Assembly (NCBI GenBank): GCA_964409035.1 | Contig: CAYPBQ010000002.1 | Location: 83,267 to 147,266 of the forward strand | Source of the DNA: an uncultured Candidatus Saccharibacteria bacterium | Lineage (GTDB): Bacteria > Patescibacteriota > Minisyncoccia > Phycocordibacterales > UBA12088 | Direction of reading: 5' to 3' | Length of the DNA stretch: 64,000 bases | Part shown: in pieces, positions 10,523 through 64,000 of the stretch | Layout of the letters: each line of letters opens with the position of its first letter | Position numbering within the stretch: the first letter of the stretch is position 1 | Program-made: the position numbers and the translations under genes | The notes under the pieces: model-generated | What the model was told of the DNA's origin: nothing | What the model saw: only the letters and a program-made list of their open reading frames with translations | The model's database searches: none

Positions 10523-10942
10523 TTATACCGCGCCATCCATAGCAATGTTTGCAAGCTCATCAGCCTTTGCGTTTTGTTCTCTTTTTATATGCACAAATGA
10601 TACATGAGCAAATCGTACAAGAAGCGCTCGTACCCGTTCGTGTTGTTTTTTTAAGCCAGGATCTTTTACTTTGTATTCACCTCTCATTTGCTTAATGATA
10701 AGCTCGCTATCCATATGCACGAGCACGTTCTTGCCTTCTTGCTTGTGAACAATGAGTAACTGGAGTCCCTCTATAAGACCTTCGTACTCAGCATAGTTAT
10801 TTGTTTGATGCCCAATATACTTTGCGTGCTCAAAAACAATTTCACCCGCCGAGTCTTTTGCCCACACACCAATGCCGGATATACCGGGATTACCCCTTGC
10901 TCCTCCATCGCTATATAATTCTATAATTTCTTTCATAGGCAT
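10523..10942 (-). CDS. rnhA: Ribonuclease HI. The start is probably the internal MPMKEII; the ORF is open up to 11023.
   Basis: YSDGGARGNPG and a DSELII-type catalytic DEDD pattern. Confidence 0.8.
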   Translation of the reverse strand: MPMKEIIELYSDGGARGNPGISGIGVWAKDSAGEIVFEHAKYIGHQTNNYAEYEGLIEGLQLLIVHKQEGKNVLVHMDSELIIKQMRGEYKVKDPGLKKQHERVRALLVRFAHVSFVHIKREQNAKADELANIAMDGAV

Positions 10943-10946
10943 GCGT

Positions 10947-10974
10947 GCACTATCGCGATATATCGCGATAGTGC
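10947..10974. repeat. 28-bp perfect palindrome gcacTATCGCGATATATCGCGATAgtgc (copy 1 of 4).
   Basis: Exact reverse-complement symmetry. It lies just upstream of the rnhA start and at the 3' end of the yerC-like gene. Confidence 0.9.
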
Positions 10975-10982
10975 GTGTGGGG

Positions 10983-11435
10983 TTATCTTTTATTACGGGA
11001 GTGCAGACTCTGCCACCGCCCATTACCTACTACTGGTGGCAATCCTACTCTAAGCGCATACTCAATATTTTTCCATAGTGACTCACTGCGTTTGGTATTG
11101 CTAAACAATCGTTGCAGCGATTCAAATCCTCCAGTGGTAATCATTGCAGTATACATTCGTACTGTGGAATCACTCACGCTCAGTATTTTTGCGATTCTAT
11201 AGGTAGAATATCCTCTTACCACCATACCTATAATTGCCAAACGCTTGGCAAGCATAACCCGTTCTGTTGGAGTAAACAAACTAAGTATTACTTGAGATTT
11301 TTGTTGCGAAAGTAATTCAGCAAATTCTTCGGTGATTTTTTTGTCTGCGTACTCTTGAATATGCTTTTTTGAGACATGTGTCACCCCTCCAATATAGCGA
11401 TATATCGCTATATTGTCGTGAAAGTTTTCCACCAT
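10983..11435 (-). CDS. TrpR-related YerC/YecD-family helix-turn-helix protein, a putative transcriptional regulator.
   Basis: LFTPTERVMLAKRLAIIGMVVRGYSTYRIAKILSVSDSTVRMY matches the YerC/TrpR HTH consensus. The N-terminal limit is uncertain. Confidence 0.55.
   Translation of the reverse strand: MVENFHDNIAIYRYIGGVTHVSKKHIQEYADKKITEEFAELLSQQKSQVILSLFTPTERVMLAKRLAIIGMVVRGYSTYRIAKILSVSDSTVRMYTAMITTGGFESLQRLFSNTKRSESLWKNIEYALRVGLPPVVGNGRWQSLHSRNKR
11391..11414. repeat. 24-bp perfect palindrome aaTATAGCGATATATCGCTATAtt (copy 2, variant core).
   Basis: Exact symmetry. It lies inside the 5' part of the yerC-like ORF. Confidence 0.9.
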
Positions 11436-17773: not shown

Positions 17774-18385
17774 CTAATTGCTTCTTACATTTCTTAATGA
17801 TGCCGTTGAACGAAGTGTAAACTCTTCTGGAAGACGAGTAGGGTTAATATTTACTATAACCGTAACGCCCACAATTGCCACATCACTAACTCGAGTGTAA
17901 TCAAGTATCTCGGTACCTGTCGCATCAAAGTACTCAAGCATTGGTACATCATCCTCACCATTTCGCACATCCTCGGATACTACTGTTAGCTCACCCGTAC
18001 CGTCGACATACGTAAGTGGTGTACCGGTTGGATTTACTGTCTCACGCATTAGTACAGTACCGTTTAGATAATAATGTATGCGCTCAACTGCATTGTCTCT
18101 ATCGGTGTCACTATAAAAATACAACTCAGTGTCACTCATTGAAATAATCGGATAGGAACCTTCTTCAGAATACGTTGCTTCACGCACATCACGAACCATG
18201 TATTCGACACCCTTGCGTGCACTTGAGAGCGCGAGTGCTTGCTCGATTGCATTTGCATTTGTTCGATAAAAGAATAGTACCGATGACGCAATCGCCAACA
18301 TCGCGAGCGTTGAAATAGAAATAACGATAATACTTTCTATAAGGGTAAATCCATTCTTCTGAGTCATATGGTGAGGTGTGTTCAT
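17774..18385 (-). CDS. Prepilin-type N-terminal cleavage/methylation domain protein (pseudopilin).
   Basis: KNGFTLIESIIVISI is a class III signal peptide. Confidence 0.7.
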   Translation of the reverse strand: MNTPHHMTQKNGFTLIESIIVISISTLAMLAIASSVLFFYRTNANAIEQALALSSARKGVEYMVRDVREATYSEEGSYPIISMSDTELYFYSDTDRDNAVERIHYYLNGTVLMRETVNPTGTPLTYVDGTGELTVVSEDVRNGEDDVPMLEYFDATGTEILDYTRVSDVAIVGVTVIVNINPTRLPEEFTLRSTASLRNVRSN

Positions 18386-20136
18386 AGTGTGGGGAGGGTG
18401 ATGCGTAAACTATCCGCCCCAGAGATATTTACCCCAGTGAGAGTGACTGTTTCATATCCATCACGCACCACTACAATTGTGTATGAAGTACTGTTACTTA
18501 CTCCGGAAAAATGTGCCTGTCCGCATGTGCCTGTATTTTTTTGCGTGTCATACCCTCCTCCATACACACGAACTGATGCATCAGTCATGGTAGCACCTGC
18601 GTCATCTACCACCTCAACTCGTATTGAGTGTGGTGTGTGTGCGGTCATGTAGAGCGATAGAGTTTTGGTGCTTGCTGGTGAAATGGTGACAGGTAACGTG
18701 TCACATGCCTGTGCAATATCAAAACCTCCCCCAACACCATCAACGGTAAGTGTGTACGTATCCCATTCAATGGCATCAAATGAGGTGACTCCCTCGCTGT
18801 TTGTAGTCTGACTCTCTGTATATTTATATATTGGATTAATATCTTCATCGGTACCAATTGTTTTAGTGCTCGTTATGGTGATTGGGATACCACCTCTTGG
18901 TACGGGTCCTACAAGGCTAGAAAGATTCCACTCGTGTACATACGGCGTGACGGTGGTGGTATCAGTGTGTAACATGGCACGAATTCTAAGTTCGCTATAA
19001 GTCGTAGTAGCAAGTCCATATAGCGACACTGGCGAAGTGGTAAAACCAGTAGTGTTACCACTCAAATCGCTTTCTGGTATTGGTACAAAGTCAGTGCCGT
19101 TATTGTAGAGCAATTGGTACCGTAGTGATGTTGTCTCGGGTACGGTATGAGCAAAGGTTAGTTCGCCCCATGAAACCAAGTATGGAGACGCGATAGTAAG
19201 TGAGTCTGCGGTACCGTCTGGATAATATTCATCATTTGTTGTGGCTAGTAGTATGTCTCCTCCGGTACGTGTCGTGTTAGAGAGACTTGCAATACCTCCG
19301 CCGCTATCAAATGTGTCACTAGTGGTAGAGGTAGCCACAGGATCATACGTATTCACAAATAAATCTGACAACACATCAATCGCGAAACTGCCAGTGGTAG
19401 TTTCTCCTTCCGCAACAGAAAGATTCGCAGGAAGTGGGTTTGGATTTTGAGCCGTTGCATCGTAGGTACTGTCAGTACTGTAGCCAGCTTTGGTAACAGT
19501 AATATGATAGTTACTTCCCTCTGGAGTACCACCTGGAAAAATCGCAACCCCAGAGAGGTTGGTGAATGTGGTGACATCAATTGGTGGTGAAACTGCATTA
19601 TTGCGAATATGCACTTGTGCGCTCGGCACTGGCAATGCCGATGCGTTAAACACAGCAATCTTTAATGTGCCACCACCTGTGATGTTTTCAATACCAACCG
19701 GCACCACCGATGATGTTATCGCATACGATTGCACTCTATCTTTTAATGTCCACTCTAGTTCGACTTTAACTTTTTTATAATCTGCAGTGATACCATTTTC
19801 ATCCTCTTCATCAAGTCCATCTTCAGGATCATCTACGTAGGTGATGAATGTGCGTCTTGTGTATGTAGTTTGATTTAGGTCAATGGTTTCTGTTTGGGGT
19901 AGTAGTCCCGCTGGTATACCTCCCACCGTACCAATAGCGTCATATGTCATTGATCTAACAAATTCCATTTTCTCTGTCGCTAGTGACATCGCGCCTACTT
20001 TTGCTTTATTACTTCCAATAAGCACGATGGACAAACGAAATGTTCCATACAATCCGTAAAAGACAAGCATAATGAGAGCGATGCCGATGATCACATCGAT
20101 AAGCGTCATTCCCCTTTCTTTTCTATTGATAACCAT
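18382..20136 (-). CDS. Large prepilin-type minor pilin (584 aa) with a Thr/Gly-rich beta-rich C-terminal domain.
   Basis: RGMTLIDVIIGIAL prepilin signal. Possibly a tip adhesin. Confidence 0.6.
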   Translation of the reverse strand: MVINRKERGMTLIDVIIGIALIMLVFYGLYGTFRLSIVLIGSNKAKVGAMSLATEKMEFVRSMTYDAIGTVGGIPAGLLPQTETIDLNQTTYTRRTFITYVDDPEDGLDEEDENGITADYKKVKVELEWTLKDRVQSYAITSSVVPVGIENITGGGTLKIAVFNASALPVPSAQVHIRNNAVSPPIDVTTFTNLSGVAIFPGGTPEGSNYHITVTKAGYSTDSTYDATAQNPNPLPANLSVAEGETTTGSFAIDVLSDLFVNTYDPVATSTTSDTFDSGGGIASLSNTTRTGGDILLATTNDEYYPDGTADSLTIASPYLVSWGELTFAHTVPETTSLRYQLLYNNGTDFVPIPESDLSGNTTGFTTSPVSLYGLATTTYSELRIRAMLHTDTTTVTPYVHEWNLSSLVGPVPRGGIPITITSTKTIGTDEDINPIYKYTESQTTNSEGVTSFDAIEWDTYTLTVDGVGGGFDIAQACDTLPVTISPASTKTLSLYMTAHTPHSIRVEVVDDAGATMTDASVRVYGGGYDTQKNTGTCGQAHFSGVSNSTSYTIVVVRDGYETVTLTGVNISGADSLRITLPTL

Positions 20137-20147
20137 GTGGTGAAAAA

Positions 20148-21371
20148 CTAAATACCTTCGGTAACCGAATATATCGGTGTGATCATTGATACCGCAAAAA
20201 ATCCAACAACAGCTCCCACGATAACCATCAAAAATGGTTCGATAATCGTGGACATGTCTTTTGTTTTTTGCTCAACCTCAAGCTCGTAAAACTCTGCGAC
20301 ACGCAAAAGAAGTTCAGGAAGTTTCCCAGTCTCCTCACCTACAGCAATAAGCTCGCCAACGAGTGTTGGATACAAATCTTCATGCACATGAAATACATCT
20401 GCGAGTGGATTACCTTTCTGGATTTTTTCTTTTGCTTCAACAAGCACCGCTCGATAGTATGAATGCTGTACCACATCAGCGGTAATCTCTAGTGAGTGCA
20501 CAACATCAACTCCAGCAGACAACAATGATGAGAGGGTGCGAGCAGTACGTGCAGAGTTGGTTTCCTTAACAAGCTCTTTTATGATTGGCATCTTGAGTAA
20601 TACCGTTTCAAATATTCTTCTGCCGATGCTGGTTTTAAGTCCGTAATAAAATCCTGCTATAACTCCGATGCATAGAATGATTGCGGCAACTGTTTGCTCT
20701 TGCATAAAATTACTTGCGCCGATAATCATCTTTGTTGATGCTGGAAGCTCTACTCCAAGCTCGGTAAATGTCTGACTGAGGGTAGGTACCACAAAGACCA
20801 AAAGGAGTGCGCCGATAACGACAAGTGCTGCCATAATGATTCCGGGATAAATGAGTGCTCCTTTGATTTTCTTTTTTAGTCGATAGGTCTGATCCATCTG
20901 CTCACCTACCACAAGCAGTGAGTTAGATAGCCCACCACTCTCTTCACCTGCGCGCACCATAGAAATAACCAGTGATGAAAATACTTTTGGATGTTTTGCT
21001 AGCGCTTCATTAAAAGTAATTCCCTTCTCTATTGATGCCACCAGATCAAGGAGTACTGTCTTGAATCCCGGCTTCTTTGTTTGCCGTTCCATCACCTGAA
21101 GTGCTCGCGAGAGGGAGAGCCCTGCTGAGAGCATGGCGGAAAGATTTTTGGCAAAGTTAATTTTGTCCGTCTCTTTTATTCTTCCAAAGAAACTACTGAT
21201 AATAGGTATCTGGATATTTATAGAACTTCCACCCTTTGTTTCTTCAAAAGAAACCACCGTCGCGTTTTCTTTGCGTATATGTTGGTACAGCTCAAATCTA
21301 TCTGTCGCCTCAAGCGTACCTTCGTACTCTTCTCCTGTATCTCGTTTAGCTTTGTATACAAATGTTGGCAT
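20148..21371 (-). CDS. pilC: Type IV pilus assembly platform protein PilC/GspF.
   Basis: 407 aa with two T2SSF repeats. Confidence 0.85.
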   Translation of the reverse strand: MPTFVYKAKRDTGEEYEGTLEATDRFELYQHIRKENATVVSFEETKGGSSINIQIPIISSFFGRIKETDKINFAKNLSAMLSAGLSLSRALQVMERQTKKPGFKTVLLDLVASIEKGITFNEALAKHPKVFSSLVISMVRAGEESGGLSNSLLVVGEQMDQTYRLKKKIKGALIYPGIIMAALVVIGALLLVFVVPTLSQTFTELGVELPASTKMIIGASNFMQEQTVAAIILCIGVIAGFYYGLKTSIGRRIFETVLLKMPIIKELVKETNSARTARTLSSLLSAGVDVVHSLEITADVVQHSYYRAVLVEAKEKIQKGNPLADVFHVHEDLYPTLVGELIAVGEETGKLPELLLRVAEFYELEVEQKTKDMSTIIEPFLMVIVGAVVGFFAVSMITPIYSVTEGI

Positions 21372-21607
21372 GGTGTGTACTTATGTCCGCGGCAACAAGC
21401 ATCTATTTATACCGAACAGCAGTACTTCAATGATACCACTCATCTCTCATTTATTTTGAAAGTTAATCAACAGTACAAGCTCTCAATGCGACACACAAAA
21501 ACCTTTCGATTTATCAAAAGGTTTTTGTGTGGGGTATTTGTATAAAAAGAAAATCACTCGAAAGAGTGATGCGTTACTGTACGAGTGTGATTTAACTGAG
21601 TACAAAA

Positions 21608-21680
21608 ACAAAAGAGGGCTCGCGAACGAGCCCTCTGCATGAGAGGTTTGGACCCTCTCATGCTAATTACTACTTGCTGT
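21608..21680 (-). terminator. Tandem hairpins (agagggctcg-cgaa-cgagccctct and catgagagg...cctctcatg) followed on the minus strand by a T-run; the pilB terminator.
   Basis: Seen about 100 nt downstream of the pilB stop. Confidence 0.55.
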
Positions 21681-21773
21681 GCCCTTCATACAAGAGATGC
21701 ACAGCATGATCAATGGTAAAACTAGACACATCGCCTAACAGGGGTGTGAGTCCACTAAAATAATTACTACTTA

Positions 21774-23525
21774 TTACTCACTAATTACACGAAGCACTTC
21801 TTCTATTGAGGTAATACCTTGCGCAGATTTGAATATGCCGTCTTCTAGCATGGTAAGCATGCCTTCTGTTCTTGCTTGCTGTTCAATATGGTCTGCGTCC
21901 TTACCTTCCATTATTAGGTCGCGAATTTTTGACGACATAGAAAGTATTTCGTGTATGCCGATACGCCCTTTATACGCGTCTTCTTCTTTACCTTTTTTAG
22001 GTCTAAAAAATGGAACTTTATCAAGTGTGGTGATCTTTTTATCTACTATCCCCTCTTCATGTAGCGCTTTCATCACGCGCTCAATATTTGCATGTACAGC
22101 AAGATTATCTACTTCTGCTTTGGTGAGATTGTACTCTTCTTTTTCTTTTGTAAACTTTCTTACCAATCGCTGGGCAATAACAACATCAAGGGTAGACACG
22201 AGGAGAAATGCTTCTGCACCCATTTCGATAAGACGAGGGATAGCGCCAGCAGCAGAGTTGGTGTGGAGCGTGGAGAGAACAAGGTGCCCCGTGAGTGCTG
22301 CATTAACAGCAAGACTTGCAGTTTCGCCATCACGAATCTCTCCCACCATGATAATGTCTGGGTCTTGGCGAACAAGTGAGCGCAGACCTTCGGAGAAGGT
22401 AAAGCCGATTTGTGGTTTTACCTGTGTCTGATTTACCCGTTGCATTTGATATTCGATAGGGTCTTCTATGGTTGAGATATTTACCTCTGGGGTATTTACA
22501 ATATCTAAAATAGTATAGAGCGTGGTTGTTTTACCTGAACCTGTTGGACCAGTAGTAAGAATCATGCCCACCGTACGGCGAGTTGCCTCGTGAATCTTTT
22601 CTAATCCATTACCATGGAAGCCAAGTGACTCAAGAGTGTAGCCTCCACCTCCCTCTCGCAACAATCGCATCACTGTTTTTTCACCGTAGTACACCGGCAA
22701 CACTGATACACGGAATGATACCTTTTCGTCATCTATCTTCATTTTAAAACGACCATCTTGTGGGAGACGCTTTTCATCAAGCTTTAAATTGGAAAGTACT
22801 TTTATGCGCGCCGTAATGGAAGGTCCTGCACTTTTAGGAAGTGACATTGCGTCATGGAGTATGCCGTCAATTCTATAGCGAACAAGTACTGTCTCTTCCA
22901 TTGGCTCTACGTGTATGTCAGATGCGTTTTGCAAAATTGCATGCTTTAAGAGCGCATTAACAATGCGTACCACAGGAAGATCTTCAGCGAGCTTTTTTAA
23001 ATCGGTACCAGAAACTTCCTCGCCTGAATTTTCAGATACTACCGCAAGTGTTTCTGATTCTCGTTTTATGATATCGCCAAACTCATCCTTGAGTGTTTTT
23101 TGATACTGCAGTAGCGCATCCTTGATTGAATTTACATCGGTAAGGCGAGGTAAAATCTTGAGTCCTGTCTTCTTTTTTATGAATTCAATAGAGCGTAGAT
23201 CATCTGTATCAAGCATGGCAACCTCAAGCTCCTTGTCCTGCTTTTTAAACGCGACAATATTGTTGGTGCGCGCAATAGGCTCTGGAATTAATGATAGAGT
23301 ATCAAAATCTATATGCTTCCCTTTTAATGAAATAAACGGGATACCAAGTATGTATGCCTGTACCCGGCGCAAATCATCCTCAGAAAGGTGCCCATCACTT
23401 AATAAAATGTCCCCTAGTTTTTTCTTTGTTGCTTTTGCTTTAATCAATGAATCCTCAACCACCTGCTTGGGCACAAGACCAGAATCAAGTACGAATTCTT
23501 TTAGTTGTATTTGATCTACTACCAT
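21774..23525 (-). CDS. pilB: Type IV pilus assembly ATPase PilB/GspE.
   Basis: 583 aa. Walker A (GPTGSGKTTT), Asp box and His box (LSTLHTNSAAGAIPRL). N-terminal GSPII_E_N domain. Confidence 0.9.
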   Translation of the reverse strand: MVVDQIQLKEFVLDSGLVPKQVVEDSLIKAKATKKKLGDILLSDGHLSEDDLRRVQAYILGIPFISLKGKHIDFDTLSLIPEPIARTNNIVAFKKQDKELEVAMLDTDDLRSIEFIKKKTGLKILPRLTDVNSIKDALLQYQKTLKDEFGDIIKRESETLAVVSENSGEEVSGTDLKKLAEDLPVVRIVNALLKHAILQNASDIHVEPMEETVLVRYRIDGILHDAMSLPKSAGPSITARIKVLSNLKLDEKRLPQDGRFKMKIDDEKVSFRVSVLPVYYGEKTVMRLLREGGGGYTLESLGFHGNGLEKIHEATRRTVGMILTTGPTGSGKTTTLYTILDIVNTPEVNISTIEDPIEYQMQRVNQTQVKPQIGFTFSEGLRSLVRQDPDIIMVGEIRDGETASLAVNAALTGHLVLSTLHTNSAAGAIPRLIEMGAEAFLLVSTLDVVIAQRLVRKFTKEKEEYNLTKAEVDNLAVHANIERVMKALHEEGIVDKKITTLDKVPFFRPKKGKEEDAYKGRIGIHEILSMSSKIRDLIMEGKDADHIEQQARTEGMLTMLEDGIFKSAQGITSIEEVLRVISE

Positions 23526-24055
23526 TATAAGTAGTATACCGCATACACGCGGTTACTTTAGGCACTTCTCAACATGCGACATAGGTACACAGTGTTTACC
23601 GTTACAAAAGAAACAGCACGCAGAGTATTGCGTGCTGTTTGGTGAAGGAGTCTTCACATGACTAATTATTTTTTCTCCATCTCTTTTTAAATTTCGCTTT
23701 TCGTAACTCCTTTTCGATTCTTTCTTTTTGTCTTTTTTCACTTTCTTCTTGCTCTTTTCTTTGCTTTGGAGTTTTCTTCATGACCGTCTCCAACCGGCCT
23801 ACGTGCCGGCAACGTCCGCACCACTGGCGGATGAAACAACACTACGTGTATTATTACATGAAAATATTGATTAGTCAATAGCTTACTTGACAGTTTTTAG
23901 TCAGATGCTAGTATTATCGCATCAGAAACGCCCCATTGGGGCGATTCTTTTTGCCCGAATAATAGTTATATAGTACTTATTCATACATACTATATATAAT
24001 AGAAGGGTATGATGTGTATACGGGTATTTAGAAGACAATTGAATAACAACTACAT

Positions 24056-35999: not shown

Positions 36000-36089
36000 A
36001 CTAGTGACTGTAAACCATTTATTACTATTTGAAAATAAAGACACCATGCCGCACGTGGCGTGGTGTCTTATTGTCCCGAAACCGATATG

Positions 36090-36356
36090 CTACTTTGGAG
36101 GCTTTAACTGAGCACTAAGGTAATCACCTATCACTTGTAATGCGGCATCTCTACCATCCACGCCTAGGATGTTTATAGCGTGGCGCACTACTGATGGGTG
36201 TTGTTCAACGAACTTAAGGAAAAGCTTTATATCCATAGGATCTCTACCGAAAAGCATGGAGAAAGTGTCTATGATTTTATATTGCTGGGGTGTAAACACA
36301 CTGACGTCCATTTTATTCTCCTCAAAGAACTTCGCGAGCTCTCGCGACCAAGTCAA
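36090..36356 (-). CDS. Hypothetical 88-aa protein.
   Basis: ORF only. Moderate codon plausibility. Confidence 0.3.
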   Translation of the reverse strand: MTWSRELAKFFEENKMDVSVFTPQQYKIIDTFSMLFGRDPMDIKLFLKFVEQHPSVVRHAINILGVDGRDAALQVIGDYLSAQLKPPK

Positions 36357-36416
36357 TTGCGACCTGGAGTATCTGTCTATCTCCTGTAGGCAGATACTCC
36401 AAAGAACAATGTATAC

Positions 36417-36444
36417 AAAAGCCCCTCTGTGGGAGGGGCTTTTG
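36417..36444. terminator. Bidirectional terminator aaaagcccctctgtgggaggggcttttg.
   Basis: Perfect 9-bp stem flanked by A4 and T4. Confidence 0.6.
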
Positions 36445-36473
36445 TTGATTTATAGTGTCTTGATTTATTTCAA

Positions 36474-36536
36474 CTAAAAGCGCCCTCCTTGTGGGAGTGT
36501 AATCAGTACGAGGGTAATCAGCGCTATTTGCTTCAT
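36474..36536 (-). CDS. Candidate leaderless 20-aa hydrophobic micro-ORF, MKQIALITLVLITLPQGGRF; alternatively a ~115-nt small RNA.
   Basis: A minus-strand promoter (TTGACA, 17 bp spacer, TACTAT) ends 7 nt before the ATG. A terminator at 36417-36444 lies downstream. Confidence 0.25.
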   Translation of the reverse strand: MKQIALITLVLITLPQGGRF

Positions 36537-36542
36537 AAAAAT

Positions 36543-36570
36543 ATAGTACCGAACCAAAAAATACTGTCAA
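36543..36570 (-). promoter_or_regulatory. Minus-strand sigma70-like promoter (TTGACA, 16 bp spacer, TACTAT).
   Basis: Hexamers seen on the reverse complement of 36543-36570. Confidence 0.4.
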
Positions 36571-36581
36571 GAATAATAGAG

Positions 36582-36607
36582 AAGACGGCGCCCAAGGGCG
36601 CCGTCTG
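36582..36607 (-). terminator. Hairpin agacggcgcccaagggcgccgtct; minus-strand terminator of the 81-aa ORF.
   Basis: 10-bp GC-rich stem. On the minus strand a T-rich tract (tctctattattctt) follows. Confidence 0.5.
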
Positions 36608-36643
36608 TTTGGGGCATCATGCCCCGTGATAATCCGCAACACT

Positions 36644-36889
36644 TCAATCTTGCGGTGGTGTAACCGTATGAACCTCAGTAAAAATTACCACACCGCTTCT
36701 TCCATCTGGATCAGCGTCTGGCGCACTCGGGTAGATAGGTACATGTATCTTTGGAAATACAGGGAGTCTACTACCGCTACTACCCCAACCGATTGGAGTG
36801 GGCTTCCCCTCTCTACTAACAGATCCGCCATGGACTGGATCTCCAGGGACAGGCGACTGAACGAAAGCAAAACCCATTTTATCCGGCAT
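36644..36889 (-). CDS. 81-aa Pro/Gly-rich small protein, MPDKMGFAFVQSPVPGDPVHGG...
   Basis: Perfect Shine-Dalgarno site AAGGAGG 5 nt before the ATG. A downstream terminator. It lies in frame within the longer ORF-track entry 36644-37024. Confidence 0.35.
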   Translation of the reverse strand: MPDKMGFAFVQSPVPGDPVHGGSVSREGKPTPIGWGSSGSRLPVFPKIHVPIYPSAPDADPDGRSGVVIFTEVHTVTPPQD

Positions 36890-36924
36890 AAAAGCCTCCT
36901 TGCGTCGCCAGGGTCGACGCACTG

Positions 36925-36990
36925 TTTCCACTATTACCCCCTGGAGTGTGATCACCACACAATAACCACACTTCAGGGGGTAATACCTGA
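36925..36990. repeat. 19-bp near-perfect inverted repeat (tattaccccctggagtgtg / cacacttcagggggtaata) forming a long hairpin in the 5' UTR of the 81-aa ORF.
   Basis: Seen directly. One mismatch. 16-nt loop. Confidence 0.8.
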
Positions 36991-37028
36991 TGAAACTTTT
37001 ACCTTTCTCCAAAGAACAATTCATCTAC

Positions 37029-37068
37029 ACGACAACCGGCCCCTGTGTGGGGCCGGTTGTGTGTTTTT
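37029..37068 (+). terminator. Plus-strand intrinsic terminator (acaaccggcccc-tgtgt-ggggccggttgt followed by GTGTTTTTG).
   Basis: 12-bp GC stem followed by a T-run. There is no plus-strand CDS upstream. Confidence 0.55.
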
Positions 37069-37210
37069 GAAGTATTTTATCTACAACATTACGCACGCAT
37101 ACGGCCCCCAATCATTGGGAGTAGCCATGAAAATGCATACGCAAATACCTGTTGCATAAAAGGATAGTAACAAAGATGCTCTATCTGTGTCAAATATTAT
37201 GTGCTTGTTG

Positions 37211-37245
37211 AAAAAAAAATTGACCCCGGCACAAGTGCCGGGGTC
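37211..37245 (-). terminator. Minus-strand intrinsic terminator (gaccccggcac-aagt-gccggggtc followed by T9).
   Basis: 11-bp stem. On the minus strand it is followed by aatttttttttc. Confidence 0.7.
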
Positions 37246-37304
37246 TGCAGGCAAAGCCTGCTCCGATGTCCTGGGGCCCGAGGGCCCCGCCGATGGTGTT
37301 GATG

Positions 37305-37466
37305 CTACGCTGACTTGCCGCCGTCGGGCCGTCGCGACTTGCCGGGGTCCTGGTGGCCGACGGTCGCCTGGCTGGTGTCGTGCCGGTGCGTCGTCGCGTT
37401 CCAGATGTCGGTCGCCTGGCTGTTGTCGAGCATCGCAAAAGAGGTAGGATGATCACTTCGATTCAT
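37305..37466 (-). CDS. 53-aa hydrophilic micro-protein encoded in a ~68% GC island, MNRSDHPTSFAMLDNSQATDIWNATTHRHDTSQATVGHQDPGKSRRPDGGKSA.
   Basis: GGAG Shine-Dalgarno site 7 nt before the ATG. An upstream TGTATAAT extended -10 element. The strong terminator at 37211-37245. It contains two ~20-bp direct repeats (CGGTCGCCTGGCTG-G/T-TGTCG). Confidence 0.3.
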   Translation of the reverse strand: MNRSDHPTSFAMLDNSQATDIWNATTHRHDTSQATVGHQDPGKSRRPDGGKSA

Positions 37467-37643
37467 CGCTTTTCTCCGTAGCTACCGGCTTTGTTGGTGG
37501 ATCTTGCGATCCGCCGGTGCTAAGTAGAAATCTACACGATTATACATAAAAGTCAATAGCTTTCCCTATTTTCTAAAAAGTCTCAAGAGAATTGCACTAC
37601 GTCGAGCCACATTCTGGAATATCAACAAAGAAATGGTTTTAGT

Positions 37644-38438
37644 TTATAGCTCTGCTCCAACTGCAAGGTTGAAACGCTCCTTAGCACTCTCGCCTTGCAC
37701 GACAATTTCAACAAACCTATGTTCATCTATACCAGAGCTACCAACAATAAGGGCGCTTTCACCCTTTGGTACTGCTGCTAGGTGCTCGTAGCAGGTAAAT
37801 GTCCCAAGTTTTGTTTGTACCTGTGAGCCTTCAGCAAAAGAAATTTCTTGAGGTAGGATGGTGGTCTTTGCATTACCAAAGTTATCTATCCACCACAACG
37901 CATGTGGTGCTGATGCAACTTCTTGTAGTGAAATAGTTTCTGCGGGTACTGTATTACCCCCCAAAAGGTAAGCAAGCACTCGTGGGGTAAAGTCAAAACT
38001 TCTAAATTGTGACCCAATAATTCTATTGCGCTCTTCTTCTGTCATAGCGCCACCTGCCACCATTGCCTCAGTAACTGTAGGAATATCCATAAGAGACACT
38101 GATTCTGTAAGGGCAAGCTTTTTAATGAGCGAGAGCGTGAATCCATCGAATGATGACACCACAAGAGTGTCTCGCACTAAAAAGTAGCAAAACGGTGTGC
38201 CGTTTTGCCACTTTTTACTACCTTTATGGCGAGGGGCCACATTTACCAAAATCGCGGTTTTATTAGAAGTATCACGATACGCATCAAGCACATCAATAAG
38301 ATTGCCCGCTGCTGAAAGATCGCCATAATCACCCACACCCACCAAAGAAACAGATGCTCCAGTAAGCGCAGCAACACGGGCAAGCTGTCTTCCTCCCGCA
38401 TTATCATCGTGACAATCATTAATGATGGTGATGTGCAT
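37644..38438 (-). CDS. DUF62-like protein, a putative SAM hydroxide adenosyltransferase (SAM hydrolase/halogenase fold).
   Basis: C-terminal GSSGIDEHRFVEIVVQGESAKERF resembles the DUF62 GSSGLLEIAV..GSAA block. The N-terminal region is only weakly similar. Confidence 0.4.
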   Translation of the reverse strand: MHITIINDCHDDNAGGRQLARVAALTGASVSLVGVGDYGDLSAAGNLIDVLDAYRDTSNKTAILVNVAPRHKGSKKWQNGTPFCYFLVRDTLVVSSFDGFTLSLIKKLALTESVSLMDIPTVTEAMVAGGAMTEEERNRIIGSQFRSFDFTPRVLAYLLGGNTVPAETISLQEVASAPHALWWIDNFGNAKTTILPQEISFAEGSQVQTKLGTFTCYEHLAAVPKGESALIVGSSGIDEHRFVEIVVQGESAKERFNLAVGAEL

Positions 38439-46281: not shown

Positions 46282-47205
46282 TCATCTTTTTGTATGAAAA
46301 CGCTTGTGTACTTCACGTAAATGCTTATCAGTTACGTGTGTATACACTTGAGTAGTTGCGATATTGGCATGACCTAAAAGCGCTTGCACCGAGCGAAGAT
46401 CAGCACCATTTGACAACAAGTCGGTTGCAAATGAGTGCCTGATTACGTGCGGGGTAACTTTTTTGGTGATACCTGCTTTTATAGCGTATTGCTTAACAAT
46501 TCGCTCAACAGAGCGCGGGGTGAGGCGTGTGGTGGTGGCATTTTTTGCTCGATTTGATGTTTGTACAAACAGCGCATCATCCATGTCTTTTCTTTTTGCA
46601 AGATATGCTCGTATACCCTCACGAGCAGCATCAGATAAAAACACAACGCGAACCTTTTCTCCTTTACCCCTAACAGAAAACTCCTCTTTAGTGAGGTCTA
46701 AATCACGCGACAGCGAGCAAAGCTCTGATACTCGTAATCCAGTTGAAAATAGGAGTTCAAGCATGGCTCTATCACGAAGAGACTTAACATCGTCACCATT
46801 TGCTGCTGCTATTAGTCGAGTAAGCTCTTCAAATGATATGAGATCGAGCGATCGCTCTCCGACTTTTGCTAACTCAATACGCTCAGGAGATAGGGATTCG
46901 ACACCACGCTTTCGCAGATACTTTAAAAATGCCCGGAGGGCAATAAGGTAGTAATTTTGAGTTTTTTTCTTTAGTGTTTCCTTTCTTCCACCGATTGAGG
47001 TGCCAGATTCCTGGCGGTTAAGCCATAATCGATATTCTCTAAGTAGAGAGTCATCAATAGTTGATGGATTTTCTACCTTAGCAAAAGAGAGAAAGCGAGC
47101 GAGGTAACGCTCATAATTCTCTATAGTATTGAGCGAGCGTCCCTTTTCTATTTCAAGGTGTTCTAAAAACTCACGCTTTAGTGATTCTATTTGCGTGTAT
47201 GACAT
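46282..47205 (-). CDS. Tyrosine recombinase XerC/XerD family. The start is probably MSYTQIES.
   Basis: C-terminal RHSFATDLL ... LLGHANIATTQVYTHV catalytic R-H-R-Y box. Confidence 0.85.
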   Translation of the reverse strand: MSYTQIESLKREFLEHLEIEKGRSLNTIENYERYLARFLSFAKVENPSTIDDSLLREYRLWLNRQESGTSIGGRKETLKKKTQNYYLIALRAFLKYLRKRGVESLSPERIELAKVGERSLDLISFEELTRLIAAANGDDVKSLRDRAMLELLFSTGLRVSELCSLSRDLDLTKEEFSVRGKGEKVRVVFLSDAAREGIRAYLAKRKDMDDALFVQTSNRAKNATTTRLTPRSVERIVKQYAIKAGITKKVTPHVIRHSFATDLLSNGADLRSVQALLGHANIATTQVYTHVTDKHLREVHKRFHTKR

Positions 47206-47242
47206 ATCATAAGTATGACACCGGTGTCGCAAAATAAAAAGT

Positions 47243-47263
47243 GCGCCGCCTGTAAGGCGGCGC
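47243..47263 (-). terminator. Hairpin gcgccgcc-tgtaa-ggcggcgc followed by a minus-strand T-run.
   Basis: Seen in the sequence. It overlaps the stop of the small lipoprotein ORF. Confidence 0.5.
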
Positions 47264-61121: not shown

Positions 61122-62900
61122 ATGACTCAGTTAAAATCACTTCTCATCTCATCACTTCTCATCATTAGCGCATATGCTGGTTCAATTTGGTTTTATTCAG
61201 ATTCGCTTTCTGCACAAAGCCCTCCAAGAGAGGCGGTAACCTGTGAGGAGGTTGATACTACCATCGCACAACTCACCGCCCTTCGCGCACGAGCAGAGGC
61301 AGCAGACACACCAGAGGAGATACAAGCGATAGTAGATGAGTTTAACAGGCTAGAGACACATAACGGCAATGACCTTTTGGTGGCACAGCAAGAAAATCAA
61401 CTTGAAGATAGGAGGGAGTATTTGATAAGTAGGATAGAAGACACTATAGAGGTAGATACTGCGCAAGGTGGAAGAAATGCTGAAGAGCTTAATGATCTAC
61501 TAGCACGAGCAGAGACAGCAAATAACATTACCGAGCTTGGACGAGTAGAGGGAGAGCTCACTGAGATACGTGGAAGGTTAGGACTAAGTGGAGGTGGGGG
61601 TAGTGGAGGAGGTGGTGGAGGTGGGGGCGGGGTGATTGGTGGAGGGGGAGATGGGTCATGGGCAGGAGGCGTACTTGATGGAAGTGGAAAAGCTAATCGT
61701 GTTCCGATACCCGCCTTTACAAGAACCATAGTGCTTAACCCTGGTGATGACATACAAGCCGCAATAAACTCTGCGGGGCCTGGAACAGATATACAACTAA
61801 GAAGCGGCACATACTCATTCCGCAATATTTCTATAAATGGAAAGCAGGGTAATCCAAATGCGTGGATACGACTTGGAAACGCACCAGGAGAACGTCCAGT
61901 ACTAAAACCAACAGGTGGATATGCTGGTATAAGTGTTTTAGGAGGTTCAAGCTACGTCCTTATAGAAGGGTTAGAAGTAGATGGAAATAGAGTAGGAACA
62001 ACCCTTCCTGACGGAACCTACATTGGTTCATGGAATGACATGCTTAACTATTCAAACAGAAGTTGTGGCAACATTGGGTACCATTGCAATCAAGGGATTC
62101 ACATAGGGTGCGGAGGTTGTACTACAAACCAAGCGCATCACGTCGTAGTGAGGGACAATATCACCCACGACTTTGGCGGGTCAGGTATAACCACCTTTGC
62201 AGCTGACTATGTGGTAATCGAAGACAATGTGTCATTTAACAATGGTAACTTCTCTCGCTATGGCGAGAGCGGTATTTCTGCAGGTTTTCCTGTCATGACT
62301 GGTGGTGGAAGTTTGAATGATTATGGCTTTATAGTGCGAAGAAATATCACCTTCAACAATAAACAATTTCTTGGCTCAATAGATTGCGGTTGCGGTCCTG
62401 GTATCACCGACGGTAACGGCATAATTGTTGATGGAGCGGATCATTTTGGAGCATACAGAAGAACACTGCTTGAGAGCAATCTCTCGTATAACAATGGAGT
62501 TGAGGTTTCAGGGCAAGGAGTACACGGCACGGGTATGCACTCGGTAGATTCAAGTAATGTTGATTTTATAAACAACACTGCATACAACAATGCCGCGGGA
62601 CAAATATTTGCGTGTTGTAATTCGCGCAACAATACCTTCTACAACAACATAGCAATTGGTCCAAGGGCTCTTTTCACCGCAAGTGGGGGTTCCGGAACAG
62701 GAAAGTGCAACATTGTAAGTGCTAGTGAAAATGTAACCGCTACCGTTGCTGACCCTCTCTTTGTTAACCCCGGCGCAGGTGATTTTAGCTTGCGAGCAGG
62801 ATCGCCCGCCATTAATGCCGCATGCGATGTAACCGCATCCGCGGACCTAAATGGCAAAACCGCAAATGGCATCAAAGATATTGGGGCAATTGAAATGTAG
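61122..62900 (+). CDS. Secreted two-module protein: a conserved ~165-aa N-terminal module, a poly-Gly linker, and a right-handed parallel beta-helix (pectate-lyase-like) domain.
   Basis: Signal peptide. Repeating NN/NxG beta-helix coils (ITHDFGGSGITTF, VSFNNGNF, ITFNNKQF, LSYNNGVE, FINNTAYNNAAG). Confidence 0.55.
   Translation: MTQLKSLLISSLLIISAYAGSIWFYSDSLSAQSPPREAVTCEEVDTTIAQLTALRARAEAADTPEEIQAIVDEFNRLETHNGNDLLVAQQENQLEDRREYLISRIEDTIEVDTAQGGRNAEELNDLLARAETANNITELGRVEGELTEIRGRLGLSGGGGSGGGGGGGGGVIGGGGDGSWAGGVLDGSGKANRVPIPAFTRTIVLNPGDDIQAAINSAGPGTDIQLRSGTYSFRNISINGKQGNPNAWIRLGNAPGERPVLKPTGGYAGISVLGGSSYVLIEGLEVDGNRVGTTLPDGTYIGSWNDMLNYSNRSCGNIGYHCNQGIHIGCGGCTTNQAHHVVVRDNITHDFGGSGITTFAADYVVIEDNVSFNNGNFSRYGESGISAGFPVMTGGGSLNDYGFIVRRNITFNNKQFLGSIDCGCGPGITDGNGIIVDGADHFGAYRRTLLESNLSYNNGVEVSGQGVHGTGMHSVDSSNVDFINNTAYNNAAGQIFACCNSRNNTFYNNIAIGPRALFTASGGSGTGKCNIVSASENVTATVADPLFVNPGAGDFSLRAGSPAINAACDVTASADLNGKTANGIKDIGAIEM
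61260..61650 (+). repeat. 391-bp segment 100% identical to 63047-63437; the shared N-terminal module plus Gly linker of two adjacent secreted-protein genes.
   Basis: Base-by-base identity checked across both copies. The flanks diverge. Confidence 0.9.
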
Positions 62901-62911
62901 GTTCTCGCATC

Positions 62912-64000
62912 ATGAAAAACGCAATCAGTATAAGTAGTTTAGTGTCATTTATACTAATTGCGATTGCCTGTGTAAGTATTATTCCAACAAAGGGTAGTGC
63001 TCAGACACCACCACAAGAACCAATAACGTGCCAAGAAGTTTCTTCCACCATCGCACAACTCACCGCCCTTCGCGCACGAGCAGAGGCAGCAGACACACCA
63101 GAGGAGATACAAGCGATAGTAGATGAGTTTAACAGGCTAGAGACACATAACGGCAATGACCTTTTGGTGGCACAGCAAGAAAATCAACTTGAAGATAGGA
63201 GGGAGTATTTGATAAGTAGGATAGAAGACACTATAGAGGTAGATACTGCGCAAGGTGGAAGAAATGCTGAAGAGCTTAATGATCTACTAGCACGAGCAGA
63301 GACAGCAAATAACATTACCGAGCTTGGACGAGTAGAGGGAGAGCTCACTGAGATACGTGGAAGGTTAGGACTAAGTGGAGGTGGGGGTAGTGGAGGAGGT
63401 GGTGGAGGTGGGGGCGGGGTGATTGGTGGAGGGGGAGGGGGCACCACTACACCAGGAACAGGGGTAGGATCAGGTACCGCAGCGGGTACTGCAACTGATA
63501 CAGGCTTTGTGCCTGCGGGATATACCCTCGCATGGAATGATGAGTTTAACTCCCTAAGTCTAGGAAGTGGGTCCGCGTTTAGATGGACACCATTTGATAC
63601 CCTCGCAGCAAATGCAGGATATGACGCAAAAGGAAGAATACTTGCAAGTAACAGCTCTGATGCAATTTGGGTTGCTGACCACGAGATGGGTGCAAGTGGA
63701 ACACGAACATATGGTGACGCATTTAAAGCGGCGGGTACTTATGGCGATGGGCCATTCTTCCATGAAGTTTCGAGTGGTGCACTTGCCATGCGGGCATACC
63801 CAGTACCAAGCTCGGTTCGTAACGAATTTATTGCCTATGGATGGCCACAAGGCGCTCCTTATGCCGCAGGTGGAATATTTGGCTCACTCTCACACACACA
63901 GACATACGGCTACTATGAGGTGCGGCTTCGCGTAAACTCAATAACAAGAGGTCAGCATTTTGCGCTTTGGCTACTACAAGACGATCTGGCGTGGCCTCCT
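62912..64000 (+). CDS. Secreted paralog with the same N-terminal module and Gly linker, but a concanavalin-like/GH16-like C-terminal domain. Partial; it runs off the window edge.
   Basis: Nucleotides 63047-63437 are identical to 61260-61650. The C-terminus resembles GH16 (GQHFALWLLQDD, analogous to the PAFWLL block). Confidence 0.45.
   Translation, partial: MKNAISISSLVSFILIAIACVSIIPTKGSAQTPPQEPITCQEVSSTIAQLTALRARAEAADTPEEIQAIVDEFNRLETHNGNDLLVAQQENQLEDRREYLISRIEDTIEVDTAQGGRNAEELNDLLARAETANNITELGRVEGELTEIRGRLGLSGGGGSGGGGGGGGGVIGGGGGGTTTPGTGVGSGTAAGTATDTGFVPAGYTLAWNDEFNSLSLGSGSAFRWTPFDTLAANAGYDAKGRILASNSSDAIWVADHEMGASGTRTYGDAFKAAGTYGDGPFFHEVSSGALAMRAYPVPSSVRNEFIAYGWPQGAPYAAGGIFGSLSHTQTYGYYEVRLRVNSITRGQHFALWLLQDDLAWPP

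Follow-up and report, generated by a model that had tools for sequence, protein, structure and literature searches.

A GC-rich island in a Saccharibacteria genome is probably a native, hypervariable small gene

Introduction

The genes comC/CSP, agrD, comX and blpC of Gram-positive bacteria are polymorphic precursor genes for pheromones or bacteriocins, known as 'pherotype' genes. The locus described here, a GC island in the genome of a Candidatus Saccharibacteria bacterium, resembles such pherotype loci in having a very short open reading frame (ORF) with its own expression signals, conserved ends and a variable middle, and in occurring as many alleles in closely related strains with near-identical flanks; the mosaic look of these alleles suggests recombination. 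Unlike the pherotype precursors, the predicted peptide has no double-glycine leader, no cysteine or C-terminal tail of the AgrD type and no signal peptide, and no processing enzyme, exporter or receptor is encoded next to it. Nor is a codon usage opposed to the bias of the genome a known trait of pherotype genes.

In the targets of diversity-generating retroelements (DGRs), adenine mutagenesis acting on AAC codons would be expected to leave a dominance of NNC codons. Patescibacteria commonly carry DGRs, and one DGR clade is restricted to this group (PMC8144416). The locus matches DGR variable regions in its ~100-nt distal hypervariation, its NNC-rich codons and its downstream GC-rich hairpin, but differs from DGR targets in its length polymorphism, in substitutions that are not limited to particular sites, and in encoding a 25–53-aa peptide rather than a C-type lectin domain.

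RNAIII/hld, SgrS/SgrT and SR1/SR1P are dual-function small RNAs (sRNAs) with small peptides and a conserved base-pairing region, and screening for GC content is a classical route to non-coding RNA (ncRNA) genes in AT-rich genomes. With the former, our locus shares a transcript of ~300 nt with stable hairpins and a mini-ORF (here predicted to be translated); by contrast, its body is its most variable part, and no target complementarity was found in the 64-kb stretch of DNA that was analysed (hereafter, the window). With GC-rich ncRNA islands it has in common a sharp local GC peak bounded by promoter and terminator, but the GC excess is concentrated in the third positions of one frame and ends at the stop codon. 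The combination of a short ORF, GC hairpins and a terminator, with peptides rich in Thr and Ile, is also reminiscent of the leaders thrL, pheL and hisL (Rfam RF00506, RF01859). Unlike these, the locus has no conserved regulatory codon run or mutually exclusive pairings, no regulated operon lies in the window, and Rfam scores are far below threshold, with the weak matches falling in neighbouring units. We conclude, with a probability of about 0.6, that the island is a native small gene of a narrow Saccharibacteria clade, built for strong expression and encoding a peptide of 25–53 residues with a fast-evolving core.

Results

A GC island bounded by expression signals

The 225-bp stretch 37224–37448 has a GC content of 68.9%, against a mean of 43.3% (sd 3.85%) for all 225-bp windows across the 64 kb. 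This places it 6.6 sd above the mean and bears out the abrupt GC island reported in the preliminary description of this DNA. The runner-up GC peak (59.6%, 63318–63542) was considered as a paralogous island and rejected because it is a poly-Gly stretch or linker within a large ORF. The edges of the island coincide with functional signals, the Shine-Dalgarno sequence and start codon on one side and the terminator on the other. Its high GC has two sources: a variable core composed almost only of NNC and NNG codons, which makes up the bulk of the island, and GC-rich stabilising and terminator hairpins.

Promoter, 5′ stem-loop, Shine-Dalgarno sequence, ORF, hairpins and terminator form one compact unit, all on the minus strand (Table 1). 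The elements listed in the preliminary description, namely a promoter, a Shine-Dalgarno site, a 53-aa ORF with an internal repeat and a T9 terminator, are all present as parts of this self-contained unit, and the several GC hairpins claimed alongside them are found in the 3′ UTR as two hairpins, accompanied by a stem-loop in the 5′ UTR.

Table 1. Coordinates of the features of the transcription unit in the window.
Feature	Position	Strand	Details
Sigma-70-type promoter	37529–37556	-	-35 TTGACT 37556-37551, 16-nt spacer, -10 TAGATT 37534-37529
5′-UTR stem-loop	37485–37517	-	outer CCGGC/GCCGG, inner GGAUC-GCAA-GAUCC
Shine-Dalgarno GGAG	37474–37477	-	7 nt upstream of ATG
Mini-ORF, 53 aa, MNRSDHPTSFAMLDNSQATDIWNATTHRHDTSQATVGHQDPGKSRRPDGGKSA	37305–37466	-	ATG at 37466, stop TAG 37307-37305
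N-terminal head, codons 1-10	37437–37466	-	conserved motif M-x-R-x-x-H-P-(P/T)
GC-rich variable core, codons 11-53	37308–37436	-	G/C-ending codons 41/43 (24 C, 17 G)
Direct repeat copy 1, 23 nt	37361–37383		minus strand encodes ...TSQATV
Direct repeat copy 2, 23 nt	37409–37431		encodes ...NSQATD; 21/23 identical to copy 1
Second in-frame duplication	37312–37349		14-nt copies 37312-37325 and 37336-37349; spacing 24 nt (8 codons)
3′-UTR hairpin 1	37273–37288	-	GGGGCCC-UC-GGGCCCC
3′-UTR hairpin 2	37247–37261	-	GCAGGC-UUU-GCCUGC
Intrinsic terminator	37211–37245	-	10-11-bp GC stem GACCCCGGCAC / GUGCCGGGGUC at 37245-37222, AA, U9 (T9 37219-37211)

The promoter block CTATTGACTT-N12-GTGTA[G/T]ATT is kept in the related contigs L002, L063, L104–L106, L109 and L110, and the arrangement GGAGA(A)-N5-ATG is common to the window allele, the L002 type and L063. 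The inner stem of the 5′ stem-loop reads GGGGC/GCCCC in L002 and CGGUGC/GCACCG in L063, so that the hairpin is kept while its sequence has changed; in L109 this stem-loop is weak or absent. The conserved nucleotide sequence of the head is GGAGAATGGCAATG...CATCCTCCG, and the conserved 3′ hairpin sequence is GAGGAGGGGGTTTTACCCCCTCCGAGCGGCCCC.

Within the ORF, the copies of the 23-nt direct repeat are spaced by 48 nt, or 16 codons, and the chance expectation of such a repeat in ~230 nt is, by a rough estimate, below 1e-4. The repeat noticed at the outset is real, although its boundaries had been placed 1–2 nt off. The 14-nt copies of the second duplication encode DPGKS and DGGKS. A 10-nt segment of the ORF (37340–37349) is an exact copy of the terminator stem's 5′ arm, a feature seen only in the window allele.

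Folding of the unit relative to shuffled sequence yielded MFE z scores of -3.6 for the window allele, -5.0 for L002 and -5.1 for L063. The plus strand of the window scored -3.7; because it folds equally well, the fold score has no power to tell the strand. Together with the comparison of stems between species, folding upholds the 5′ and 3′ hairpins as real and the 5′ stem as kept with a changed sequence, and does not discriminate the strand. Sequestration of the Shine-Dalgarno sequence is present in the L002 fold, but its pairing partner differs or is missing in the window allele and L063, and it was rejected as a shared regulatory hairpin.

The neighbouring genes encode RNase Y, prephenate dehydratase, HU, a trypsin-like protease, an M20 peptidase, SAM_HAT, DUF5667, an ECF sigma factor and an S9-like hydrolase. 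The 64-kb window contains no ATP-grasp, radical SAM, YcaO, LanM or C39-ABC gene, nor was an exporter, modifying enzyme or receptor for the peptide found within it. The window also encodes ComEC and type IV pilus genes. A gene of 77–107 aa begins within ~60–130 nt of the unit in L109 and in the L002 and L063 types, and the downstream orphan gene of the sister genomes weakly resembles one ATP-grasp subdomain. The window itself has no gene downstream before the next unit, which has its own promoter.

A frame-specific coding signature

GC contents at the first, second and third codon positions (GC1/GC2/GC3) in the ORF frame are.58/.55/.81 in the window allele,.48/.67/.83 in L002 and.56/.52/.88 in L063, for which Fisher tests of codon-position GC gave p values of.0016,.0026 and.0029, respectively (combined 2e-6). 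The extreme GC3 is seen in the ORF frame of every allele, with core values of.82–.97 in 8/8, whereas ordinary genes have a GC3 of.355±.036 and a maximum of.46 (37 long ORFs of the window). Codon usage in the head is ordinary for the genome, with G- or C-ending codons at 2/10 positions, and GC3 of the first ten codons is.2–.6 in seven alleles and.8 in L063. No codon periodicity was found 3′ of the stop codon.

In five conspecific alleles, the ATG and a homologous GCC-TGA stop are kept around ORFs of 84–144 nt (28–48 aa). Internal duplications are multiples of three in 5/5 cases (48 and 24 nt in the window allele, 36 nt in L002, 36 and 9 nt in L113), as are allele length differences in 4/4, although slippage of the core in 3n/6n units (GGCACC, GACACC, GGCATC) could yield both in-frame indels and three-base periodicity unselected. 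The peptide ends are conserved as M-x-R-x-x-HPP and (A/S)AR...(S/T)A, while differences in the core are spread about equally over all three codon positions, a distribution compatible with relaxed or diversifying selection. Collectively, these sequence statistics suggest that the ORF is translated.

The ORF was overlooked by gene callers. Its core is of low complexity, with T, D, G, S, A, I, P and R abundant. The peptide of L063 is hydrophobic and those of the window and the L002 type are hydrophilic; this change of character between species is hard to reconcile with a single protein function common to all. No signal peptide was found in the mini-ORF product, and neither this peptide nor any of the small ORFs matched a Pfam or NCBIfam family. 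AlphaFold2 modelled the peptide with low confidence (mean pLDDT 62, pTM 0.21). A profile of the eight alleles run against 5.8 billion protein clusters recovered a sole member, P0129, which is the L105 allele.

Hypervariation confined to the ORF

Over 8,087 nt, the Logan contig L001 matches the window with 100% identity. The comparison with sister genomes located syntenic counterparts of the island on at least nine contigs from sister lineages and different samples. In L002 (86% aa identity of SAM_HAT) and L063 (80%), an orthologous unit follows immediately after the SAM_HAT gene, and further alleles were recovered from L104–L108, L110, L113 and L109, the last of which has the same promoter and then the downstream orphan gene. 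In sister Saccharibacteria the unit occupies the same position, behind the same promoter and with the same N-terminal codons. It is orthologous across at least four lineages (about four carry it), which are 42–59% diverged at four-fold degenerate (neutral) sites with core GC3 still high. In relatives with 59–66% SAM_HAT identity (L059, L064, L100–L103), no island is present at the SAM_HAT-adjacent position. A metagenome scan with the conserved promoter block returned 34 matches, all ordinary promoters with no downstream rise in GC, and two scans of viral contigs gave chance matches only.

Between strains, hypervariation is confined to the ORF and the flanks are identical. L002 and L106 have no differences in 229 nt of 5′ and 375 nt of 3′ flank (604 nt), but differ at 36 of 96 aligned nucleotides of the ORF, with 30 additional gap positions. 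The same holds for L002 and L105, which differ at 0/375 nt of the 3′ flank and 17/120 nt of the ORF. Alleles differ in length by 6–60 nt and carry several indels, the peptides have 25–53 residues, and conspecific alleles are as different from each other as alleles from separate species.

Discussion

That the unit is a structured small RNA or a dual-function RNA, with the GC-rich body as scaffold or base-pairing module and the ORF incidental or secondary, is possible but doubtful. The strong promoter and terminator, the folding scores, the 5′ hairpin kept with different stem sequences in three species and the several GC hairpins in every 3′ UTR would suit such an RNA, as would the differing peptide properties between species; open frames also arise by chance in GC-rich DNA, and on its minus strand the island is open in each of the three frames. 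Yet in 8/8 alleles it is the ORF frame alone that is enriched in GC3, and the enrichment ends at the stop; the Shine-Dalgarno sequence, the ATG and the first codons, which end in A or T, are conserved; and folding is just as good on the plus strand. Conservation is lowest in the body, which ranges from 84 to 144 nt between strains with identical flanks, and this free variation argues that no fixed structure or seed is maintained. At gathering thresholds, Rfam identified only four tRNAs in the whole window, and permissive E-values on 37100–37650 and 36050–37250 produced sub-threshold, terminator-driven matches among the families compared (tfoR, Spot 42, the rnk leader and others); the top match to the unit, tfoR, had 27.3 bits (gathering score 70) and was carried by the terminator hairpins. 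A search for RNA targets found no complementarity of at least 15 nt to the island elsewhere in the window. Of the regulatory RNA proposed in the preliminary description, the 5′ and 3′ hairpins stand, but the core shows codon periodicity and evolves in frame, and no Rfam family reaches threshold; given the codon signature of the GC-rich core, a pure structural RNA is unlikely. The order of short ORF, GC hairpins and intrinsic terminator also recalls a leader-peptide attenuator, in which ribosome progress through the GC-rich ORF, itself difficult to unwind, would decide whether the hairpins that follow end transcription ahead of the next gene. The 77–107-aa gene at short distance in L109 and in the L002 and L063 types is in keeping with this arrangement, the ORF segment that repeats the terminator arm in the window allele could compete for pairing, and there are Rfam leader-family matches, sub-threshold only and located in neighbouring units. 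An attenuator is nonetheless improbable: the window allele has no downstream gene to control, the next unit being served by a promoter of its own; in L002, hairpin A does not overlap with the terminator, and the two are hence not mutually exclusive; and the organism lacks the amino-acid operons usually controlled by such leaders. In addition, strains differ in the ORF body but not in the hairpins, which leaves no conserved alternative pairing or regulatory codon run.

Known hosts of Saccharibacteria are Actinobacteria, and the core GC3 of.87–.97 with GC1 exceeding GC2 in the window allele is like that of genes from organisms of 65–72% GC, as would be expected had a coding fragment of a high-GC (actinobacterial) host been recently imported and fused behind a native promoter and start. 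When 1.84 billion protein representatives were searched with the 53-aa ORF by phmmer (HMMER), no donor protein was identified, the matches being P0121, a repetitive artefact in which an 11-residue motif matched many times, and the weak P0122; in phage and plasmid collections, blastn of the unit gave chance matches of 30–52 nt only. Rather than being patchily present between non-conserved flanks, the unit keeps both its synteny and the promoter ahead of it in the window, the L002 type and the L063 type. Because GC3 of.82–.97 persists undecayed in orthologous lineages despite 42–59% neutral divergence, the core does not behave as a decaying import, and because conspecific alleles are as divergent as interspecific ones, import would need a fresh event per strain. 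The host-derived acquisition suggested earlier, with no credible protein relative, no phage or plasmid match and sister orthologues in place, is accordingly very unlikely. The preliminary description had also raised an assembly chimera, a high-GC read joined to a Saccharibacteria contig. Such a join would produce the abrupt composition change at both edges, but these edges match functional signals, and the chimera is ruled out by the independent Logan assembly, identical over 8 kb, and by syntenic units in at least nine other contigs from different samples, which reduce its probability to a negligible level. Under programmed diversification, the variable region would be rewritten by a DGR encoded at another site of the genome or by some undescribed hypermutation process that acts locally. 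This would account for variation limited to the distal ~100 nt of the ORF in otherwise identical genomes, for the dominance of NNC codons in the core and for the GC-rich hairpins just after the variable stretch. Pfam searches that covered nearly every ORF of 150 aa or more in the window detected no RVT_1 reverse transcriptase; of the two ORFs that contain a YxDD motif, one is NusA and the other a CarboxypepD_reg protein, and an RVT_3 match at 10526–11026 is RNase H. An ungapped scan for a template repeat, allowing any base opposite template A, found nothing but self-matches in the window, the 12.8-kb L002 locus and the 6.4-kb L063 locus, and blastn-short of the island against the window returned nothing. 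With no reverse transcriptase found in the window and no template repeat in the three loci, a local DGR is not supported. The length differences of 6–60 nt, substitutions at all codon positions and a target far smaller than a C-type lectin fold further speak against programmed diversification, which we regard as quite improbable.

In the reading we prefer, that of a native small gene, strong expression would be achieved through the near-consensus promoter, the 5′ stem-loop, the GGAG sequence, two to three GC-rich 3′ hairpins and the terminator. The first ~8–10 codons are kept, with ordinary codon usage, and the core changes very rapidly by substitution and by in-frame duplication and deletion. 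The peptide may be a strain-specific product under diversifying or balancing selection, acting in signalling, competition or host interaction, with its short conserved ends as putative handling signals. Alleles may be swapped by homologous recombination, for which the ComEC and type IV pilus genes of the window could be relevant. Two candidate causes may be named for the retention of G and C at third positions: selection for very stable mRNA, or GC-biased repair of heteroduplexes, in which many mismatches would arise as divergent alleles recombine. A more speculative and improbable version would make the locus a dedicated diversification cassette with conserved head and tail, whose core is rewritten or swapped by a remote DGR or by a new mechanism acting on the GC-rich NNC-codon repeats, and whose peptide serves in epibiont-host or kin recognition. 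Bolder still, the host-like codon usage (GC3 ~0.9) of such a cassette might mean that it is expressed in a high-GC actinobacterial host cell or adapted to one.

Saccharibacteria and other bacteria of the Candidate Phyla Radiation (CPR) have tiny genomes, and how they recognize hosts and competitors is largely unknown. A single hypervariable spot in several hundred otherwise identical bases implies strong diversifying pressure or a local diversification mechanism. Although built for high expression, the locus is near-invisible to gene callers, with one call in 5.8 billion clusters. Its synonymous-site GC of 0.82–0.97, against 0.36 in ordinary genes, is held across speciation and is hard to explain by mutation bias. 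The locus is thus a natural test case for selection on mRNA structure and for GC-biased gene conversion in bacteria, a hypothesis put forward in PMC4450053. More generally, when a low-GC genome contains a sharply bounded GC island, the cause need not be foreign DNA, an RNA gene or a chimera.

Anatomy of the island

The GC-rich island reaches 68.9% GC in the 225-bp window 37224-37448, compared with a mean of 43.3% (sd 3.85%) for 225-bp windows across the 64-kb sequence, bearing out the compositional anomaly of the preliminary description. The second-highest peak (59.6% at 63318-63542) falls inside a large ORF, where a poly-glycine stretch is encoded; it is due to the poly-Gly linker of two adjoining large ORFs (61122-64000) that share a near-identical N-terminal region and a coiled segment, and appear to be tandem paralogues. 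The promoter, Shine-Dalgarno site, short ORF and terminator first read in the island are all present and, with a 5′ stem-loop and hairpins, form a single compact unit on the minus strand. The direct repeat is likewise real, at slightly shifted coordinates.

Elements of the island and their positions in the window
Feature	Coordinates	Strand	Detail
-35 TTGACT	37556-37551	-	followed by 16-nt spacer
-10 TAGATT	37534-37529	-	
Two-tier 5′ stem-loop	37517-37485	-	
Shine-Dalgarno GGAG	37477-37474	-	
Mini-ORF	ATG 37466 to TAG 37307-37305	-	53 codons
Two short GC hairpins	37288-37273; 37261-37247	-	
Terminator, 10-11-bp GC stem	37245-37222	-	followed by AA and U9
Direct repeat pair	37361-37383; 37409-37431		21/23 identical, 48 nt apart
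Second repeat pair	37312-37325; 37336-37349		24 nt apart

Codons 40-43 contain GACCCCGGCA (37340-37349), an exact 10-base copy of the 5′ arm of the terminator stem (37236-37245), which could therefore pair with the 3′ arm (37222-37231). This copy is found in the window's allele only and may have arisen incidentally from the duplications that built the core, the variable part of the mini-ORF from codon 11 onward.

Counterparts in sister lineages

The neighbouring SAM_HAT gene assigns the window to Candidatus Saccharibacteria. By this gene, the closest genome locus is that of contig L002 (86% amino-acid identity), and GC peaks lie directly downstream of SAM_HAT both there and in contig L063 (80%); at the equivalent position, the island is missing from relatives whose SAM_HAT identity is 59-66%. 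The three islands have in common a promoter block, CTATTGACTT-N12-GTGTA[G/T]ATT, a 5′ hairpin, GGAGA-N5-ATG and the first codons M-x-R-x-x-H-P-P. The GC-rich body that follows this head cannot be aligned between them by blastn, and is succeeded by two to four GC hairpins and then a terminator. An assembly chimera, one of the readings offered earlier, is refuted by these counterparts and by a Logan contig from a different assembly pipeline (SRR14271331), which matches 8,087 nt of the window, island included, without a difference.

A codon signature in the mini-ORF

GC content by codon position was counted in the frame of the conserved ATG, with a Fisher test for higher GC3. The values of GC1, GC2 and GC3 are.58,.55 and.81 in the window (p =.0016),.48,.67 and.83 in L002 (p =.0026), and.56,.52 and.88 in L063 (p =.0029), for a combined p of 2e-6. 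The first ten codons are ordinary (GC3 of 0.2 in the window, 0.2-0.6 in seven of eight alleles and 0.8 in L063). From codon 11 on, the third base is G or C in 41 of 43 codons of the window and in 31 of 32 of L002, and core GC3 is 0.82-0.97 in all eight known alleles; past the stop codon GC is even across the three phases, with no periodicity. By comparison, the 37 long ORFs of the window have a GC3 of 0.355 ± 0.036 (maximum 0.46), and a CAI-like index of 0.73 ± 0.03 versus 0.52 for the mini-ORF. Each of the five internal duplications has a length divisible by three (48 and 24 nt in the window, 36 nt in L002, 36 and 9 nt in L113, a further contig).

The core thus looks coding, as judged from its sequence: a translated message under nucleotide-level GC pressure would be expected to have an unstructured start with AT-ending codons and then a body saturated in GC. 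The proposal of a structured regulatory RNA covers the hairpins only and is unlikely for the core, which carries the codon signature; a purely structural RNA would offer no reason for a GC excess at every third base that ends at the stop codon. Comparison of the fold across homologues shows that the 5′ stem-loop is retained in three species with changed stems, GGAUC/GAUCC in the window, GGGGC/GCCCC in L002 and CGGUGC/GCACCG in L063; together with the stacked 3′ hairpins, it would fit a stable message. Growth of the core by slippage of 3n/6n units (GGCACC, GACACC, GGCATC) could make the in-frame indels and the periodicity partly by-products.

Hypervariable alleles between identical flanks

A search of 5.8 billion protein clusters gave only six relatives of the gene that comes after the island in L002 and L063, and further alleles were taken from the contigs of these six, which derive from seven different sequencing runs.

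Peptide alleles of the mini-ORF
Contig	Lineage	Peptide
L002	L002 species	MTRTKHPPFSVISMANLGTDPSARRVDTTGTNPSARHSTGSA
L105	L002 species	MTRTHPPFANISMAKLGIGTSARKVDTTGTDPSARPAGSA
L113	L002 species	MTRHSNHPNHPFSVTGTDMVKLGIGTNPSARRIDTAAIDPSARMSGSA
L106 (L107 nearly identical)	L002 species	MDRTHPPFATFANTVDSTDIDTGTAARPADTA
L110	L002 species	MTRTHPPNFMKLGTSTGIGIAARPADSA
L109	further lineage	MTHRHRVLAPLGLGICIVQIHGGAGINYGHVHDSAGSGIDTDHLRVGIA

The five complete L002-type alleles all start at one shared ATG and end at one homologous GCC-TGA stop. Between L002 and L106 there are no differences in 229 nt upstream of the ATG or in 375 nt past the stop, and 36 of 96 aligned ORF bases differ, with 30 gap positions; for L002 and L105 the figures are 0/375 past the stop and 17/120 in the ORF, with 6 gap positions. 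Differences are about equally spread over the three codon positions, and are therefore compatible with a core free of purifying selection at the amino-acid level. The end motifs, M-x-R-x-x-HPP at the head and (A/S)AR...(S/T)A at the C terminus, are kept, and the alleles look mosaic: L105 has ARPA in common with L106 and L110, and GSA with L002 and L113. Contig L104 (1-160) is a natural deletion allele in which codon 17 is fused at a CAGCA microhomology to the Shine-Dalgarno site of the downstream orphan gene, with loss of the variable core, hairpins and terminator.

Neighbouring small elements

Directly past the island terminator lies a second small unit (37030-37193, minus strand) with a promoter-like TTGACA-N18-TACTAT (37193-37164), which terminates at a 12-bp GC hairpin (37032-37060). 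It is kept in both L002 and L063 and, in part, in relatives whose SAM_HAT identity is 60-66%, has no convincing ORF and no Rfam family match, and may be an sRNA. An orphan gene of 81 aa (36647-36889, minus strand), with a strong AAGGAGG ribosome-binding site, has a long leader that is well conserved and contains a perfect 12-bp hairpin, TATTACCCCCTG ... CAGGGGGTAATA (36932-36985; about 7741-7800 in L002). Neither gene nor hairpin has an Rfam or Pfam family match, and the hairpin could be a cis-regulatory element of an unrecognised type. A tiny hydrophobic ORF, MKQIALITLVLITLPQGGRF (36474-36536, minus strand; promoter TTGACA-N16-TACTAT at 36543-36570), is almost unchanged at the DNA level in L002 and L063, and its Phe-leader-like Rfam score is below threshold (26.5 bits versus 55); it looks like a small membrane or leader peptide.

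Origin and possible identity

Acquisition from a host, the reading initially preferred, is not supported. A phmmer search of the mini-ORF against 1.84 billion representatives returned, in place of a donor, one weak match and one repetitive 1,527-aa protein with many copies of the motif KDIWEATGRRH; phage and plasmid collections gave chance matches alone. The surrounding genes are housekeeping (RNase Y, HU, trypsin-like protease, M20 peptidase, SAM_HAT, DUF5667, ECF sigma factor), and no mobile-element genes were found adjoining the island. Identity at SAM_HAT four-fold degenerate sites is 58% (window-L002), 41% (window-L063) and 50% (L002-L063), against 26% expected at saturation, and neutral sites have therefore substantially turned over. 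An imported high-GC fragment would be expected to decay in a genome with an ordinary GC3 of 0.36, yet core GC3 is at least 0.82 in every lineage, which argues that the GC content is maintained and is not a relic of recent import. The island is native and limited to a few Saccharibacteria lineages.

Diversity-generating retroelements (DGRs), one clade of which is confined to Patescibacteria (PMC8144416), have variable regions that resemble the mini-ORF, in which variation is limited to ~100 nt, NNC codons are frequent and a GC hairpin follows closely. A DGR depends on a reverse transcriptase and on a template repeat that almost matches the variable region, with the mismatches opposite adenines of the template (PMC8144416). 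The 64-kb window encodes no RVT_1 reverse transcriptase, the window, L002 and L063 loci contain no template repeat, even with template A matching any base, and the alleles, unlike the substitution-only variants of DGRs, vary in length; on these three grounds a local DGR acting on the core is not supported. It is unlikely, though conceivable, that a remote DGR elsewhere in the genome diversifies the core.

The island is most likely a small translated gene for a fast-diversifying peptide, which its signals suggest would be strongly expressed. Its pattern, in which the ends are conserved, the middle is hypervariable and numerous alleles sit between identical flanks, comes closest to that of polymorphic pheromone or bacteriocin precursor genes; unlike those loci, the island has no exporter, modifying enzyme or receptor gene nearby. 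The L063 peptide is hydrophobic and the others hydrophilic, and an AlphaFold2 model of the peptide is of low confidence (mean pLDDT 62) and mostly coil. The high GC3 might reflect selection that favours an mRNA which is very stable or unwinds slowly. Alternatively, it might arise from GC-biased mismatch repair of heteroduplexes where divergent alleles often recombine, a hypothesis taken from work on gene conversion (PMC4450053), which would explain why the conserved, non-polymorphic first ten codons lack GC enrichment. The window also encodes ComEC, a type IV pilus set (pilin-like N_methyl protein, T2SSF platform, T2SSE ATPase) and a XerC/D-type tyrosine recombinase (8643-10124, 17777-23552 and 46285-47262); these would fit a naturally transformable organism, which bears on allele exchange. 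The feature is real and unusual: a native mini-gene that is hypervariable and whose codon usage runs counter to that of its own genome.
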